A stretch of 64,000 bases of DNA from Candidatus Heimdallarchaeota archaeon (lineage in GTDB: Archaea > Asgardarchaeota > Heimdallarchaeia > Heimdallarchaeales > Heimdallarchaeaceae), in contig JAEOSZ010000031.1 in assembly GCA_016840095.1 (NCBI GenBank), positions 96,001-160,000 of the forward strand. The letters are read 5' to 3'. The notes beneath the pieces were generated by a model. It did no database searches. It was not told the origin of the DNA and was given only the letters and a program-made list of their open reading frames with translations. Below, one piece after another: positions 8,664 to 21,425 of this stretch. The translations under genes and the position numbers were made by a program. Numbering within the stretch: the first letter of the stretch is position 1; every line of letters begins with the position of its first letter.

Positions 8664-9500
8664 CTATTCTATTAACATTGTATAGTCAAAATTGGTAACT
8701 GAATGGGTTAATGCTCCAGAAGATATTAGGTCTACGCCTTCTAAAGCATATGAACTGAGATTTTCAAGATTTATATTACCTGATAGTTCAATTAATGAGT
8801 CGTTTTTGATTGACTTAACCTTAGGAATTGTTTTCCTTGCTAGTTCGGGTGAAAAATTATCTAACATAATTATATCTGCCCCAGCATTTGCTGCTTCCAA
8901 AGCTTGATCTTCATTTTGAACTTCAACTTCAATCTTTTTGCTAAAGCTTGTCTCACTTTTAGCTTTTTGAATAGCTTCTGTTAACGATCTAAAGCTTCTA
9001 AGATGGTTTTCTTTCAAAAGAACATTGTCCGATAAATTAAATCTGTGAGTATCCCCTCCTCCAATAACTACAGCATATTTATCGTATTTACCCAAACCAG
9101 GAACTACTTTTCTAGTAGCACAAATTCTAAGACTTGGATTGGTTTTTTGAGCAATTTCAGCCATCTTAGAAGTTTGAGTTGCAATTCCTGAAAGTCTTCC
9201 AAGTATATTAAGAGAAACTCTTTCAGCTTGTAGAAGACTGAGTATATCTCCTTTAACAATTGCAACAGCTGTTTTCGGTGAGACACTTTCTCCTTCATTT
9301 ACTAGTATTTCACACTCTGCACCTAAGAATTCAAAAATGCGTTTAACAAAAAGGAGACCTGCAACAATACCTGCTTGTTTAGTATAGATTTTACCTTCAG
9401 CCTTTTTACTTGGCAACAAAGATGTTGTTACATCCCAATAAGGAATATCTTCCTCAATCCATTTTTTAATGTCTTCATCAACTAAAACTAAGGGGATCAT
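8664..9500 (-). CDS. nadC: Quinolinate phosphoribosyltransferase
   Basis: AERVSLN, ATRK, HRFNLSD, LKENH, IEVEV, IIMLDN, SGNI, GALTHS. Confidence 0.96.
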   Translation of the reverse strand: MIPLVLVDEDIKKWIEEDIPYWDVTTSLLPSKKAEGKIYTKQAGIVAGLLFVKRIFEFLGAECEILVNEGESVSPKTAVAIVKGDILSLLQAERVSLNILGRLSGIATQTSKMAEIAQKTNPSLRICATRKVVPGLGKYDKYAVVIGGGDTHRFNLSDNVLLKENHLRSFRSLTEAIQKAKSETSFSKKIEVEVQNEDQALEAANAGADIIMLDNFSPELARKTIPKVKSIKNDSLIELSGNINLENLSSYALEGVDLISSGALTHSVTNFDYTMLIE

Positions 9501-9518
9501 CTGTTTTTGACTCTCTTC

Positions 9519-10544
9519 TTAATATTTTAGCATATTGTTTACTGCTCTAAAAGCCTTTTTACGAATTTCTTCATCTAGTTCGATAACATTATCATCAGTA
9601 GGTTTTTCCAGAGCTTTCCAGGTAGCAAAAAGATCATTTCTTTTCATACTTATACAGATCATTTTACTATCTTCAAACTGAACATCAGGAAATTCAATTT
9701 TCATACGATCTATGAAACCTTGTTCAGTTAGAAACAATACTTTATCACCCTTAGAAGCTTTGGCAGCATAACGATGCATGTCACCAGTTCCACCGGCATA
9801 ATCAACAGTTTCTATGATTTCTGGTCTGCATTCAAAATGAGCAAAAGTTTTAGTTTCTTTATCTTGAATAAGTCTTTCTAATCTTTTCATAGTGAGTGCG
9901 TGATGAGTTCTACAAAAACCATGCCATGTGATAATGTTCTTTCCTGTCAATTTTGCTAGATTGTGTCCCATATTTTCATCAGGGATAAAGATAATTGTAT
10001 CCTCTTCTAAGCTTTCAATGATTCTGCGAGCATTTGCTGATGTACAACAAATATCTGATTCAGCTTTAACATCTGCATTAGTGTTTACATAGCATACAAC
10101 TGGAGCACCAGGATTTTCATCCTTTAGTTTCTTGACATCTTCTCCGGTAATTGAATCTGCTAAAGTACAATCTCTCCCTCTTGCTGGAACAAGAACTAAC
10201 TTTTCTGGATTGAGTATCTTTACAGACTCAGCCATAAAATCAACACCACAGAACAAGATTCGTTTTTCTGGAATTTCAGTTGCTTTTTTAGCAAGAGCTA
10301 ACGAATCACCTACAATATCAGCAATTCCGAAAACTATATCTGCTGTTTGATAAGAATGTGCTAAGATCTTGAATCCTTTCTCCTTCTTTAATTGGTTAAT
10401 CCTGTAAGTAAATGGAGCAATTGATTCACAGGCACTTCTAGTCCAGCCTAGAGGATTCAATTTAACATATAATCTCTCAACTTCTTCCTCTAGTAAACCG
10501 AACTCCTCTCTTCGTATTTCAGGAGTTTCTTCTACAACTACCAT
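9519..10544 (-). CDS. nadA: Quinolinate synthase
   Basis: LAHSYQ, GDSL, FCGVDFMAE, CTLAD, YVNT, CTSAN, FCRTH, HFEC, CISMK. Confidence 0.95.
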   Translation of the reverse strand: MVVVEETPEIRREEFGLLEEEVERLYVKLNPLGWTRSACESIAPFTYRINQLKKEKGFKILAHSYQTADIVFGIADIVGDSLALAKKATEIPEKRILFCGVDFMAESVKILNPEKLVLVPARGRDCTLADSITGEDVKKLKDENPGAPVVCYVNTNADVKAESDICCTSANARRIIESLEEDTIIFIPDENMGHNLAKLTGKNIITWHGFCRTHHALTMKRLERLIQDKETKTFAHFECRPEIIETVDYAGGTGDMHRYAAKASKGDKVLFLTEQGFIDRMKIEFPDVQFEDSKMICISMKRNDLFATWKALEKPTDDNVIELDEEIRKKAFRAVNNMLKY

Positions 10545-10855: not shown

Positions 10856-11902
10856 ATGATAATAGCTCTATATATTGCAAATGAATCCCTCTCAAAAAAA
10901 TTTGCAAATACTATAAAGGATACACTGGTAGAATTAGATGCAGAAGTAGAAATTATCGAATTTGAAGATGAGATTCTGAATGAAGAAAACTGGGAAAATC
11001 TGATGAATGATTTTTCTAATCAAAAAGCTAACTGCATTATTTCTGTAGGTGATACTGGAACATTTCTTAGAGCAATCTTTCTATCAAGATCTTCGATTCC
11101 AGTGGTAGCTGCATCATCTGAAAGTGTGAGTTTTTTCACTGAAATAAGTCCGATTAACATGAGTTATACTTTAGCTAGTATACTTAATCGGAAATATGAT
11201 GTTGACAATTATCATAGAGTAGTCTTCCAAGATTCAGGAAACAATATTCCAATTCCAGCTTTAAATGAAATCGCAATTTTTCCAAAAGATTCTGCACTAC
11301 TAATGAACTATACTTTGATTATTGATAAGAATCAACTCTATCGAGGAAGAGCAGATGGTCTTATTGTATCAACATCTTTGGGAAGCACAGGTTATGCTCT
11401 ATCTAGTGGGGGACCGATTGCATTTGGAAATCCAGATGTGCTGATAATTGTTCCAGTTAACCCTCTAAATAAAGAACACATTCCATTAGTTGTTCCAATT
11501 GATTCGGAAATTAAATTGGTGAATTTGCGCTCTAGATCACCTCTTGAAGCTATTATTGATGGACAAATGAGGATAGGGATTGATGAAGAAATATTAGTTA
11601 GAAAATCAGCTTCTACAGCTAGAATTATTAGATTCCAAGCAAAGAAAAACATACTTGCTAAATTGAGAAACAGACTAGTTGAATTGGATCTTCGAACTTT
11701 GGAGCGTGTCCCTCCTTCAGCAAAATACATCTTTAAATTGCTTTTAACAGAAGGGGAAATGACTCAAAAGGACTTAATTGAGAGCACAGGATTACCAAAT
11801 AGAACAGTTCGTAATGCACTTTCTATACTCAAGGAAAAAGGTGTGATTAATCAAAGACCTCACTTGAGAGATGCTAGACAATCAATCTACTTTGTTGAAT
11901 GA
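10856..11902 (+). CDS. NAD kinase-like protein fused to C-terminal winged helix-turn-helix
   Basis: ALNEI and ADGLIVSTSLGSTGYALSSGGP NADK motifs; GGDGT replaced by GDTGT; C-terminal PPSAK...MTQKDL...RTVRNAL...DARQ MarR-like wHTH. Confidence 0.85.
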   Translation: MIIALYIANESLSKKFANTIKDTLVELDAEVEIIEFEDEILNEENWENLMNDFSNQKANCIISVGDTGTFLRAIFLSRSSIPVVAASSESVSFFTEISPINMSYTLASILNRKYDVDNYHRVVFQDSGNNIPIPALNEIAIFPKDSALLMNYTLIIDKNQLYRGRADGLIVSTSLGSTGYALSSGGPIAFGNPDVLIIVPVNPLNKEHIPLVVPIDSEIKLVNLRSRSPLEAIIDGQMRIGIDEEILVRKSASTARIIRFQAKKNILAKLRNRLVELDLRTLERVPPSAKYIFKLLLTEGEMTQKDLIESTGLPNRTVRNALSILKEKGVINQRPHLRDARQSIYFVE

Positions 11903-11953: not shown

Positions 11954-11980
11954 ATATTGTGAGAGAATACTCTACAATAT
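11954..11980. promoter_or_regulatory. Inverted repeat upstream of small GTPase
   Basis: ATATTGT(g)AGAG-aata-CTCTACAATAT, 11-bp stem with one bulge. Confidence 0.45.
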
Positions 11981-12000
11981 CTAGGGGATAAAAGTTGAAT

Positions 12001-12687
12001 ATGCTTGAACCATTAGTTATGAAAAAGGTGACAATATTAGGAACTACTGGTTCAGGAAAAACTACATTCTTGGAAGCTCTGTTTGGGAATATAGAGAAGA
12101 ATGATGTTGCTCGTAGAGTATTCAAAGAAGTTCAGAGTAACTTAGATTTCACACCTCTAAAATACAACAATTTTACTTCAAGTACTACAACAATTTCTCT
12201 TAATGTAGTTAACTCAGTTATAGTTCTAACAAGATTCAACAAGGTATTAATCAAAAAGTTTGAGGATAGAGAAACTATTGATTTTGAATCCATTGATTCA
12301 GCTTTTCAGGTAGTTTTATCTGATCCAGCTGGGCAAGAAAGGTTTAATTTCATGCAAGAAATTGCCTTAAAAGGCTCTGATTTAGTTATCATTATGGCTG
12401 ATGGTACAAATATTTCTTCTATGGAGAAAATTCTCCATTATTTGGAAATGGTTCAAATGGAAGAATACAGAAAAAATAGACAAATTCCTGTACTAGTTTT
12501 CATCAACAAATCTGATCTTAGAGATAGAGGTATATATTTAGGAAAGGATGTTGCAGAGAGAATAGTTTTTTCTTCTATTATTGATCGTGAGATTGTTTTT
12601 TACGAAACTTCTAATCTTGATGCAAGGTGTTATGAACTTCCCTTAACTATTATCTTCAATTATTTAGCAATGCAGGCTTATTCCTAA
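12001..12687 (+). CDS. Small Ras-superfamily-like GTPase
   Basis: G1 GTTGSGKT, G2 TTT, G3 DPAGQERF, G4 NKSD, G5 ETSNL; no C-terminal prenylation Cys; alternative TTG start at 11995. Confidence 0.88.
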   Translation: MLEPLVMKKVTILGTTGSGKTTFLEALFGNIEKNDVARRVFKEVQSNLDFTPLKYNNFTSSTTTISLNVVNSVIVLTRFNKVLIKKFEDRETIDFESIDSAFQVVLSDPAGQERFNFMQEIALKGSDLVIIMADGTNISSMEKILHYLEMVQMEEYRKNRQIPVLVFINKSDLRDRGIYLGKDVAERIVFSSIIDREIVFYETSNLDARCYELPLTIIFNYLAMQAYS

Positions 12688-12746
12688 AATCCTTTCAAAC
12701 TAACTAAATCTTTATCTATTTTGGTTGATTGGTTCAGTTGAAGGCA

Positions 12747-13112
12747 ATGAAACAGATTAAACAGCTTACTTTCAATATTACTCAAAGTAGGCGTATAAAG
12801 AACTATTCTCAAAAAAATAATATTCCTGAAAAAGAACTGTTAGCTCGTTATCAATCTGCTATGCATGTGATTTTTCTTGCCTGGAAAAAGAATCAAGAGC
12901 TTAATCCAGATTTACCATTCAGAACATTTTTTCTAGATATTATGAAATATGCAGAATTTGTCTTCAGATTAAAAGAGAGAAAAGTAGATCTAGTAAAAAT
13001 TACTGAACATGTAGAGATTTTAGAAGATGCTATTGAGGAATATAAACAAGACTACAACAAACTGATTGGAATTGAGAAAGTAGTTAAAGAATATGAAGAG
13101 AGGAATGCTTGA
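12747..13112 (+). CDS. Hypothetical alpha-helical protein
   Basis: Clean ORF with C-terminal coiled-coil-like segment; stop overlaps next start. Confidence 0.7.
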   Translation: MKQIKQLTFNITQSRRIKNYSQKNNIPEKELLARYQSAMHVIFLAWKKNQELNPDLPFRTFFLDIMKYAEFVFRLKERKVDLVKITEHVEILEDAIEEYKQDYNKLIGIEKVVKEYEERNA

Positions 13113-13561
13113 TGAAAATAGGTACAACACAATTCACTGTCAAATTCAAAGATAAGATTCCTTGTGACGATGAAGAGCTTCTTGCTAGTGATTTAGCATA
13201 TTATCTTTATTACCTAGAACTAATTCCAGAAGAACTTAGTGATTGGAATATGGACGATCTTAATTCTAAAAGAAAAGATGATGAAGAAGTCTTTACTAAA
13301 CTAAGTCGCGAATATTCAAACTTATTCAAAACCTATGCTCTGATTAGACTCAAAGCAAATGAATTATATGAAGGAAATAGGGTTATTGCATTAACTATGG
13401 GATTGCTAAGACAAAAATTACTACAGTTAAAAGAATCAGGTGTGGAACTCCCTCTTGACTATGTTGAATCTATAGAACATATCGAACATTTCATCTACAG
13501 ATATCTTACCAAGAAACAAGACAAGAGACTAGTAGAACAAGTAGTTTTTGATGAAAGGTAA
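13109..13561 (+). CDS. Hypothetical alpha-helical protein
   Basis: Translationally coupled (TTGATG) to upstream ORF. Confidence 0.7.
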   Translation: MMKIGTTQFTVKFKDKIPCDDEELLASDLAYYLYYLELIPEELSDWNMDDLNSKRKDDEEVFTKLSREYSNLFKTYALIRLKANELYEGNRVIALTMGLLRQKLLQLKESGVELPLDYVESIEHIEHFIYRYLTKKQDKRLVEQVVFDER

Positions 13562-13584
13562 AAAAATATTTTGTCGGTATTACA

Positions 13585-13622
13585 GACCTTTTAGATAAGG
13601 TCGCGACCTTCTTAACAAGGTT
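13585..13622. repeat. Doubled inverted-repeat array (candidate recombinase binding/crossover site or operator)
   Basis: GACCTT-ttagat-AAGGTC-gc-GACCTT-cttaac-AAGGTT, with perfect 14-bp central palindrome AAGGTCGCGACCTT (13597-13610); ends 3 bp before recombinase ATG. Confidence 0.8.
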
Positions 13623-13625
13623 AAA

Positions 13626-14357
13626 ATGATTCGTTGTATTATTTATGTAAGAACTTCAACAGCTGATCAAGAATCAGGTCTGGAAACACAAATAGATGAT
13701 GTCACTGCGAAAATCTATCAAGCTGGAGACAGGGAGATAGTCAGAATCATTAGAGATGAAGATGTTCCAGGAGACAGCGATCCAGAATATAGAGATGGAT
13801 TCAAAGAAATTTTGCAAATGGTTGAAGATGATGAATTTGATGAGCTATGGAGTCAGTCAAGAGATAGACTATCAAGGGATGTTGATATTCTAGGTTATAT
13901 CAGAGTCATGCTCAAAAAGAAAGACATTTCCATCATTTGTTTGGATGATGAAGATAACAAAGCTTTTGCTAGAATAAAAGATCTATTTGGTGAAATGGAA
14001 CTTGAGAAATATAGGGAAAAGCGTTACAAAGGAATGTTGAGAAGGATAGAGAGTAAGAAGGTTATGTCACGCCCTCCTTTTGGTTATACAGTTAACGAAG
14101 AAGGAAGCTTAATTATTGATGAAAGTAAAATGGGTCTTATTAGACGTCTTTTTGGTGAGTTTGACAATCCATTTGCATCACTCAAAACACTGAGTATCAA
14201 ATACAATATTCCTGTATCAACATTGAGGAATATTAGGTCAAACCCAATATACCGAACCGGTGAAGTACGTTGGGCAGGGAAAATTGCTTACTATGTTGAC
14301 CCTATTGTTCCTGAAGATAAAGATCAAATGTTAAAAACTGAATGGGAAGCAAACTAA
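13626..14357 (+). CDS. Serine recombinase (catalytic domain plus compact recombinase domain, no zinc ribbon)
   Basis: YVRTSTADQ (catalytic Ser), DRLSR, RPPFGY, SNPIY...PIV. Confidence 0.92.
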   Translation: MIRCIIYVRTSTADQESGLETQIDDVTAKIYQAGDREIVRIIRDEDVPGDSDPEYRDGFKEILQMVEDDEFDELWSQSRDRLSRDVDILGYIRVMLKKKDISIICLDDEDNKAFARIKDLFGEMELEKYREKRYKGMLRRIESKKVMSRPPFGYTVNEEGSLIIDESKMGLIRRLFGEFDNPFASLKTLSIKYNIPVSTLRNIRSNPIYRTGEVRWAGKIAYYVDPIVPEDKDQMLKTEWEAN

Positions 14358-19623: not shown

Positions 19624-20283
19624 TTGAGTTATGTTCTAATGAAAGTTCTTGAATCTGCTCCCCATAGGTACGATAAAGGTATAAAGATTCTAACTTTAGG
19701 GAAAATTGACAAAGCATACGATAGGGTAATTGAAAACATAAAGAAACATGATAATGTTCTAGATATTGGTTGTGGAACTGGAATGTTATCTTTTAGAGCT
19801 GTTATTAAAGGTGCAACAGTAATAGGAATTGACATCAATCCAGAAATGCTAGAAATTGCAGAAAAAAGAACGGAAGAGCTCAAAGTAGAAGAGAAGATAA
19901 AATTTCTAGAAATGGGAGTTGCTGAATTAGATCGATTTGAAAATGAATCATTTGAAGTAGTTGTTAGTGGATTATGTTTTTCAGAGCTAAGTGATGATGA
20001 AATTTCTTATACATTACATCAAATTAAACGGATTTTGCATACTGAAGGTAAATTTCTCTTAGTTGATGAAACTAGGAGTAAATCAATTGTAAAGAGAATT
20101 GTAAACTTGTTTTTACGGGTACCTCTTATTATTCTAACGTACATTCTAACCCAAACCACTTCCAGAGCTTTAAAAAATATTGAGAAAGAAATAGAAGAAA
20201 CTGGCTTAAAAATCCAATCTAGAAAATCGAATTTTCTAGATAATTTTGTTGAATTAGTAATTGTTAGGAAGGATATGAAATGA
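19624..20283 (+). CDS. cpaM: Class I SAM methyltransferase (corrinoid protein-associated, CpaM-like)
   Basis: MKVLESAPHRYD N-terminus, VLDIGCGTG, GIDIN; overlaps the downstream HgcAB-like gene (ATGA). Confidence 0.75.
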   Translation: MSYVLMKVLESAPHRYDKGIKILTLGKIDKAYDRVIENIKKHDNVLDIGCGTGMLSFRAVIKGATVIGIDINPEMLEIAEKRTEELKVEEKIKFLEMGVAELDRFENESFEVVVSGLCFSELSDDEISYTLHQIKRILHTEGKFLLVDETRSKSIVKRIVNLFLRVPLIILTYILTQTTSRALKNIEKEIEETGLKIQSRKSNFLDNFVELVIVRKDMK

Positions 20284-21425
20284 GATTATTCTACTACATT
20301 TATTATGGCTTTATTACCATTCTGGAGACATTGATGAGAATGTTTCCCTTTCCTGCTAAAACAGGATATCAGAAAGTTGGGAAGCCTGATGAAGATTCTC
20401 CGGTCCTTTTAACATGTAATTTTCATTTAACTATCTTGCGATTGAAAAAAGCTACAAGAGGACTGAATTATCATCTTCTGGTTGCTAATAGCAAAGGTAT
20501 TAATGTCTGGTGTGCTGCGACAGGAGGTCATTTTAACGATCATTCTGTAATTTCAGTCATAAAGTTGAGTGGAATTGAAAATAAAGTAAATCACAAGAAA
20601 ATTATTCTTCCACAACTAGCTGCACCAGGTGTAGAAGCAAAAGAAATTCAAAAAAGGATCGGTTGGAAGGTTCTATGGGGTCCAGTTGATTTAAAAGATA
20701 TACCTGAGTTTTTTGAAACAAATTTTGAAAAAACAGATCCGATGAAAGAAGTGAAGTTTAAACTAATCCAAAGAATTGAGATGGCAATTATGTGGTCATT
20801 TCTTGCAAGTATAGTAGTAATGCCAATATGGGGACCATTGTTTAAACTTGAAGCAGCATTCATGTTAGCACAGATATTCTTCATTTACTTGCTATCACTA
20901 ATTTCGTTTCCAATATTTGAAAAAATCTTTCAAAAAGAAGTTGAAAAGAAGAAGGCTTTTTTCACAGTTGGTAATCTTATAGTTGTTCTTATCAATCTCA
21001 TTTATGCAACAATTGGCGTAGTATTGTATGTGATTGTTTATCAAAAAGATTATTCTTGGATTTTACTTAGGTGGTGTATTGTCTCGTTCCTATTGGTTCT
21101 ATTAGCAAATATGGAACTTAAAGGATCAACTCCAACATACAAGAGTGATTCTCATGCTGACAAACTGTTTGATGTAGGGATAGATTTTGAGAGATGCAGG
21201 GGAACAGGAATCTGTATTGATGTTTGTCCAAGAAACTGTTATAAGATGGATACGGAGAAGAATAAAATTACCATGCCTAGGCAAAAATATTGTGTTCAGT
21301 GTGGGGCTTGTATTGTTCAATGTCCATTTGACGCTCTTTATTTCATTAATAGAAAAGGAGATACAATCAACCCTAGTACAGTAAGAAAATTCAAGCTAAA
21401 TCTAATGGGTAAGAGAGTTGACTAA
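20280..21425 (+). CDS. Fused HgcAB-like protein (corrinoid domain + TM helices + ferredoxin)
   Basis: SPVLLTCNF, GINVWCAATGG cap helix, ILPQLAAPG, WGPV; 4 TM; CRGTGICIDVCP and CVQCGACIVQCP. Confidence 0.9.
   Translation: MRLFYYIYYGFITILETLMRMFPFPAKTGYQKVGKPDEDSPVLLTCNFHLTILRLKKATRGLNYHLLVANSKGINVWCAATGGHFNDHSVISVIKLSGIENKVNHKKIILPQLAAPGVEAKEIQKRIGWKVLWGPVDLKDIPEFFETNFEKTDPMKEVKFKLIQRIEMAIMWSFLASIVVMPIWGPLFKLEAAFMLAQIFFIYLLSLISFPIFEKIFQKEVEKKKAFFTVGNLIVVLINLIYATIGVVLYVIVYQKDYSWILLRWCIVSFLLVLLANMELKGSTPTYKSDSHADKLFDVGIDFERCRGTGICIDVCPRNCYKMDTEKNKITMPRQKYCVQCGACIVQCPFDALYFINRKGDTINPSTVRKFKLNLMGKRVD

Follow-up and report, generated by a model that had tools for sequence, protein, structure and literature searches.

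Why does the gene for a short serine recombinase, an enzyme of a kind that is usually mobile, stand in line with a small GTPase and two orphan genes in the chromosome of an Asgard archaeon? The window analysed here is the whole stretch of 64,000 nucleotides, and its ORF listing places four open reading frames on the + strand within the block at 11,954-14,357, in agreement with the four co-oriented genes described in the initial annotation:

11995-12687, + strand, small Ras-like GTPase, 230 aa
12729-13112, + strand, orphan O1, 127 aa (probable start 12747)
13109-13561, + strand, orphan O2, 150 aa, overlapping the O1 stop
13626-14357, + strand, serine recombinase paralogue A, 243 aa

That annotation had left two explanations, a domesticated recombinase whose activity or direction is controlled by the GTPase and the orphans, or a minimal integrative element carrying the GTPase.

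The block is a vertically inherited neighbourhood of the Heimdallarchaeaceae and not a mobile element. Our survey covered 83 genomes of the class, 31 of this family and 52 others, and two of the relatives, H. aukensis and H. endolithica, have closed genomes (PMC8813620). Gene-order comparison found the block wherever the locus was assembled, with the eIF-2B-like neighbour retained, and no relative with an assembled locus lacked it. The locus was the same across five genera, the gene order was retained in most genomes of the largest genus, and an orthologue of recombinase A occupied the same locus in 22 other genomes with 77-97% identity. The ORFs around the block, at 6-20 kb of the window, read as housekeeping genes, no GC anomaly was found over the block, and no att-like repeats above chance flanked it within 10.5-15.5 kb of the window, as had also been remarked at the outset. 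A minimal integrative element would suit the usual mobility of serine recombinases, and B-clade relatives of the enzyme (see below) do sit among mobile-type genes. However, with the same locus in five genera, a tree of recombinase A that follows the genera, neither att repeats nor a GC shift, and no relative of recombinase A found in viral contigs, we give this explanation practically no credence. Elsewhere in the window, the product of the gene at 10856-11902 resembles NAD kinase, has a changed GGDG motif and is joined to a winged HTH; the gene is divergent from nadA-nadC (8664-10544), and its product looks like an NAD-sensing regulator. At 19624-21425 a SAM methyltransferase gene overlaps a 381-aa gene.

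The first gene of the block does encode a Ras-like small GTPase: profile searches matched it to PF00071 (E 1e-10) and, above the cut-off, to TIGR00231, and it carries G1 (GTTGSGKT), G3 (DPAGQ), G4 (NKSD) and G5-like (ETSN) motifs. It is mostly single-copy across the class and has an orthologue in 24/30 genomes outside the family, where the recombinase was not found. In both genomes of one genus the GTPase lies on a different contig from the block, in Heimdallarchaeum a ferritin gene stands between it and O1, and in one genome (G004) it is frameshifted, possibly by an assembly error, with the recombinase intact. Neither GTPase nor orphans adjoin the recombinase paralogue B, and no GTPase adjoins the recombinase homologues outside the family. 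The GTPase is thus probably a syntenic neighbour by descent and not part of a recombination system.

The orphans matched no Pfam or NCBIfam family, and fold and atlas searches with them returned only generic helical matches with Z under 8. For O1, alignment favours the ATG at 12747 over that at 12729 as the start, and an N-terminal strand-helix-helix pattern, judged by eye, suggests a ribbon-helix-helix-like protein; the predicted model of O2 consists of helices. O2 is specific to the family (28/31 family genomes, 0/52 others). In nearly all genomes O1-O2 are linked to recombinase A, more tightly than the GTPase is, which agrees with the earlier claim that the orphans are accessory factors; against that claim, a paralogous pair exists elsewhere with no recombinase or GTPase beside it, in which an O2 paralogue (~30% identical) adjoins a weak O1 paralogue. 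The orphans may therefore have an accessory role for recombinase A, although their paralogues do without one. This second O1-O2 gene pair is itself conserved (G000:C56:31055-31840; L227, L223, L213), and in three genomes it shares a contig with site I, described below, at a distance of 34-67 kb on the left-array side. One module of four genes, with the GTPase and the orphans controlling the activity or direction of the recombinase, would accord with the gene order of the largest genus and with the position of O1-O2 upstream of A in nearly all genomes, but it is very improbable given a GTPase that occurs throughout the class in genomes without the recombinase, lies apart from it in one genus and is disrupted in G004, a recombinase with a promoter motif of its own, and B and outside homologues that have no adjoining GTPase. 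Because the GTPase is class-wide and unlinked in one genus and an orphan pair occurs without a recombinase, the proposed control by the GTPase is unsupported.

Recombinase A, in contrast to the integrative-element option, is a domesticated host enzyme, fixed and strongly conserved, and a member of an A/B pair of short serine recombinases. This part of the initial annotation is upheld by the fixed locus, by the identities and the genus-wise tree given above and by a dN/dS of 0.021-0.029 (about 0.025), the lowest among five genes compared, with dS partly saturated. The protein matched PF00239 (E 5e-19, 69 bits against a cut-off of 23) and has the YxRxS (Ser11) and RDRLSR motifs intact, so that profile, motifs and fold matches all place it in the serine recombinase superfamily. 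In its predicted model the catalytic domain is followed by a long helix E and a small C-terminal domain; the best fold match was the large serine recombinase Bxb1 (E 1e-10, full-length Foldseek alignment). RPPFGY and NPIYxTG motifs are present with no PF07508 match, profile matches to CcrA and XisF were weak, and sequence and predicted structure together suggest a compact recombinase-type DNA-binding domain at the C-terminus. Large serine recombinases have a zinc ribbon and a coiled coil in about 450-600 aa and belong to attL/attR-bounded elements, whereas A ends at 243 aa (orthologues 237-277 aa), has neither zinc ribbon nor coiled coil and lies on no such element; the usual control of directionality is therefore missing. 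IS607 TnpA was rejected as an identity for A, since the catalytic domain begins at residue 2-5 without a preceding HTH, NF033518 scored 31 bits against a cut-off of 110, and no tnpB lies nearby.

The second paralogue, ~45% identical to A, stands alone at another locus in nearly every genome:

G000:C31:9183-9932, outside the window, paralogue B

Catalytic residues are conserved in A in 22 genomes and in B in about 25. In two genera A has lost the catalytic serine and kept the DNA-binding half, so that A may be partly architectural. Extra B-clade copies (L045, L090, L100, L095, L099) have no promoter motif and lie among small ORFs and an RHH-like gene, apparently riding undescribed small mobile elements. 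In G004 (L042:13950-14250) two LVIVD-repeat genes are inserted behind the recombinase, and ahead of the second one lies a degraded copy of the final ~95 bp of recombinase A (76% identity); there is no ACCTT box at the junction, and the copy is therefore probably a tandem duplication.

The intergenic region ahead of recombinase A contains the following motifs:

13569-13577, - strand, CCGACAAAA motif, also found upstream of paralogue B
13577-13583, + strand, GTATTAC motif, conserved upstream of both A and B
13586-13621, no strand, four-box dyad ACCTT-N6-AAGGT-N4-ACCTT-N6-AAGGT, 36 bp, over the promoter

The 3' end of the dyad is 4 nt from the recombinase ATG, and a four-box cluster within 90 bp upstream is unique to recombinase A among the 2610 genes of the genome. 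The boxes are conserved ahead of A orthologues, related arms precede B, and a box lies 50-80 bp upstream in 9/10 homologue loci outside the family (about 6 lineages), against a local background of 0.08-0.45. As the box also precedes these outside homologues, the motif follows the enzyme family and not the family-specific O2, and this joint occurrence of motif and enzyme suggests that the recombinase binds the boxes. To judge from the sequence, the dyad is a putative autoregulatory operator at which A probably represses its own promoter. A role of the dyad as a dif-like crossover site was considered and is disfavoured, since the length of the middle spacer varies between orthologues (4 or 5 bp), which argues for an operator and probably against a crossover site; scanning with a half-site matrix revealed no further instance of the arrangement. 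As for the CCGACAAAA motif, 28/37 copies in G000 are intergenic (8% of the genome is intergenic), sometimes as inverted pairs, and it is probably the site of a regulator or nucleoid protein.

In the family that has the A/B recombinases, no inherited XerA was found. Recombinases of the A/B family were present in 29/31 family genomes and in 0/52 others of the class, and the inherited XerA clade, that is, the vertically inherited Xer-like proteins, was found in 0/31 family genomes vs 36/40 of five sister families; a sixth sister family has a conserved Xer-like gene of its own. The one exception in the family is a distant long-branch match, and the closed H. aukensis genome gave no tyrosine-recombinase match at all. 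Homologues of the enzyme outside Asgard, mostly in Thermoplasmatota, occur together with strong tyrosine-recombinase matches in 5/5 genomes, and no composite site of the type described below was found there. Since the XerA contrast is a single evolutionary event and the outside homologues coexist with tyrosine recombinases, the pattern suggests replacement but is not proof of it, and Xer replacement as a general trait of the enzyme family is unsupported on account of that coexistence. Short-recombinase homologues of Thermoplasmatota and other archaea (L306, L313-L316, L367) lie among housekeeping genes, suggesting further domestications. The sole strong Xer-like tyrosine recombinase found in the family (L051; G001:C11:22620-23441) has an N-terminal extension, falls outside the inherited clade and is probably mobile.

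Boxes of the promoter type recur at two chromosomal positions far from the gene:

G000:C33:7378-7462, outside the window, site I, intergenic box cluster, ~85 bp
G000:C45:83245-83327, outside the window, site II, intergenic box cluster, ~85 bp

Both have the same layout, a 15-16-bp box, a 33-bp dyad, a 20-21-bp free spacer and ACCTT-N5-AAGGT; the core varies from 32 to 34 bp, and the cores of the two sites are related in opposite orientation. The composite pattern had an exact match in 16/31 genomes and 0 control matches. By profile search, site II was found once per genome in two genera (27/27 genomes, of which 14 had not been part of the training set), and site I was present in about 17/27 of the same genomes, with no match to site I below E 0.01 in the 52 genomes outside the family. 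Sites I and II are thus, in two genera, single-copy conserved chromosomal sites of the kind that defines Xer/dif. Patterns, profiles and synteny did not find them in three genera, including both complete Heimdallarchaeum genomes, which have A and B intact and the syntenic position without an array; an intergenic look-alike in G028 (L397) is no better than expected by chance. The assemblies that do contain the sites are fragmented. The sites may be specific to two sister genera, or may have diverged elsewhere. A pattern scan of viral contigs gave ten matches, unlike the core and mostly repeats in giant-virus bins, and a metagenome scan gave one match without the other boxes.

Site II immediately precedes the TATA-like box of a gene that is itself fixed, and no insertion specific to this site was seen. 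It was rejected as a cassette site, the only inserted gene beginning ~190 bp away; one mosaic patch in G012 is only suggestive. Recombination between sites I and II was likewise rejected, because the products to be expected, with either two left boxes or two N5 boxes, occur in no genome and the sites have different central letters. We also observed a dispersed intergenic repeat of ~25-45 bp that ends in ACCTT-N5-AAGGT (L190, G001:C6:65909 and 71308; G000:C57:6724), which may be one end of a different small element or an additional binding site.

The genes that flank site I differ in almost every genome and are drawn from a shared accessory pool. In G008 the left flank is that of G029, from another genus (98.9% over 1153 bp), and the right spacer is that of G013. 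At site I of G016 there is a complete 1.8-kb element made up of an AAA ATPase of the defence type and a 159-aa ORF, with no recombinase, and it is bounded on one side by a full site whose right arm is foreign and on the other by a right half-site, resembling attL and attR. Both junctions share AGTCCTC, which is central in the 33-bp dyad. G007 and G018 also have right half-sites joined to this element arm, giving three elements with one exact junction, and the half-site of G018 runs into DNA matching the intact site of G003. The G016 element thus combines the features of an IMEX, being integrase-less, with hybrid junctions and one degenerate arm, and the junctions in G007 and G018 are attR-like. 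In G007 an insertion sequence apparently lies inside the conserved arm of the site I element (L182:1-140, L286:1-135).

Traces of earlier events are found on one side of site I. The ~100 kb left flank contains 12 leftover left boxes, all in one orientation and several directly after gene ends, some of the leftovers being common by descent, against 0 in the ~62 kb right flank and an expectation of 0.4. G029 has the array of G025 plus an extra gene next to the site, with a leftover box at the former site position, so that this is a polarised array in which genes are added at one site, as in integrons. In these left-hand leftovers the breakpoint is at core position 8-11 or earlier, around the middle of a broader dyad of 49 bp, and not in AGTCCTC (14-20). 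At the far end of the G008 cassette no leftover is present. These facts call for a second register or some other process. Contigs over site I contained no alternative junction in the matching population; a single contig agreed in the site only and had different flanks. No match to PF00589 was obtained in G016, where the only PF00239 matches are A and B, or in G004, G007, G013, G025 and G029, in which arrays are present. With no tyrosine-recombinase match in G016, only A and B as matches of the resolvase type, and the shared motif, action of A and/or B in trans is suggested, an assignment made by elimination in genomes that are 88-95% complete.

From these results we propose that A and/or B act in trans at the two sites as a serine-recombinase analogue of Xer/dif, with capture of genes resembling that of IMEX elements and integrons. 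The observation of a domesticated recombinase with candidate sites and a landing pad is well supported, and the mechanism moderately so, with a probability of roughly 0.6. Recombinase A would bind the ACCTT/AAGGT boxes and repress its promoter, and A and/or B would work in trans on two single-copy ~85-bp chromosomal sites, the layout of which resembles a crossover site with accessory subsites. Site I would be the landing pad at which small recombinase-less elements integrate at the centre of the 33-bp dyad (AGTCCTC), and exchange of flanks between lineages there would build up accessory genes into the polarised array. Conservation, the two sites, their junctions and hybrids, the motif in common and the lack of XerA orthologues in the genomes searched are direct observations, and from them we infer the identity of the protein that binds and cuts and the division of roles between A and B. 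It is a more speculative and rather doubtful step that the Heimdallarchaeaceae lost XerA, that the pair of short serine recombinases at multi-box sites took over the Xer/dif function, and that integrase-less cassettes exploit one of these sites and so assemble defence and other accessory genes into an integron-like array. Equally tentative is chromosome-dimer resolution in place of XerA as the housekeeping job, and the missing sites in three genera are the main weakness of that reading.

The boxes might instead be operators, either of another protein, for example an O1/O2 ribbon-helix-helix-like heterodimer, or of A and B as regulators only, the junctions at site I being the work of recombinases from passing mobile elements. 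Boxes 10-11 bp apart, as here, suit ribbon-helix-helix dimers; where catalysis is lost in two genera A keeps its DNA-binding half; the position of site II at a TATA-like box, with no site-specific insertion, would suit an operator; and the mobile-looking B-clade copies could have made the junctions transiently. However, both paralogues keep their catalytic residues in the numbers of genomes given above, a box precedes homologues outside the family although O2 was not found in other families of the class, and the integrated G016 element encodes no recombinase, and we regard this explanation as unlikely though deserving of some weight. Improbable, in our judgement, is that the sites are RNA hairpins or terminators and that the array arose by homology-facilitated illegitimate recombination unrelated to recombinase A. 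Stems can indeed be drawn from the boxes, and recombination can start from short sequences in common, but none of the pairs varies on both sides, covariation does not exceed that of shuffles, no Rfam family matched over the site, the invariant letters include unpaired ones, and three elements share one arm and one exact junction. The missing covariation and Rfam match favour recognition of DNA by a protein over an RNA structure.

The proposed serine-recombinase system can be compared with Xer/dif and its IMEX elements (XerCD, XerS/difSL and archaeal XerA; PMC5357621, PMC8371274). Common to both are two paralogous, conserved host recombinases off mobile elements, a single-copy conserved site, and small integrase-less elements with one degenerate arm landing at the host site; the differences are serine instead of tyrosine chemistry, two related sites with accessory boxes, and the three genera in which these were not found. 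As in integrons, including the archaeal ones (PMC9668308), genes are added at one site of a polarised hypervariable array and cassettes are common across genera, but there is no IntI-like tyrosine recombinase, the enzyme gene is not beside the array, and in place of a folding attC the leftovers are partial sites of 16-27 bp, with many array genes having none. With the large serine recombinases (Bxb1, SPbeta, phiC31) A shares the catalytic domain, helix E and probably a recombinase-type DNA-binding domain, although it is far shorter, has no zinc ribbon or coiled coil, and is fixed in the host chromosome and not on an element. The A/B pair recalls CcrA/CcrB of SCCmec, which are also paired paralogues. 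The Tn3/gamma-delta resolvases act at res, a multi-subsite target with a ~21-bp free spacer, and have binding sites over their own promoter, all of which resembles the present arrangement; unlike them, A has a C-terminal domain probably of the large-recombinase type and not a simple HTH, no transposon is involved, and the targets are far from the gene.

To our knowledge, chromosome-dimer resolution and gene capture at a host site (IMEX, integrons) are known only as the work of tyrosine recombinases. According to a 2021 review, archaeal serine recombinases have been seen in transposons and never fully investigated (PMC8371274), and in the open-access literature we found no paper describing such a host serine recombinase system, which is not proof of absence. 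New here are the link between the XerA gap, the promoter motif and site I, as well as site II and the integrase-less elements. The proposal lends itself to direct tests, since the enzyme has 243 aa and its candidate substrates are named; if true, it would show an enzyme of the large-recombinase type working without zinc ribbon and coiled coil. A serine recombinase that is fixed in its host and has defined sites would then be a new route to the jobs of Xer and integrons, in an Asgard lineage near the eukaryotes, and would explain the gain of accessory genes at one hotspot in Heimdallarchaeaceae genomes.
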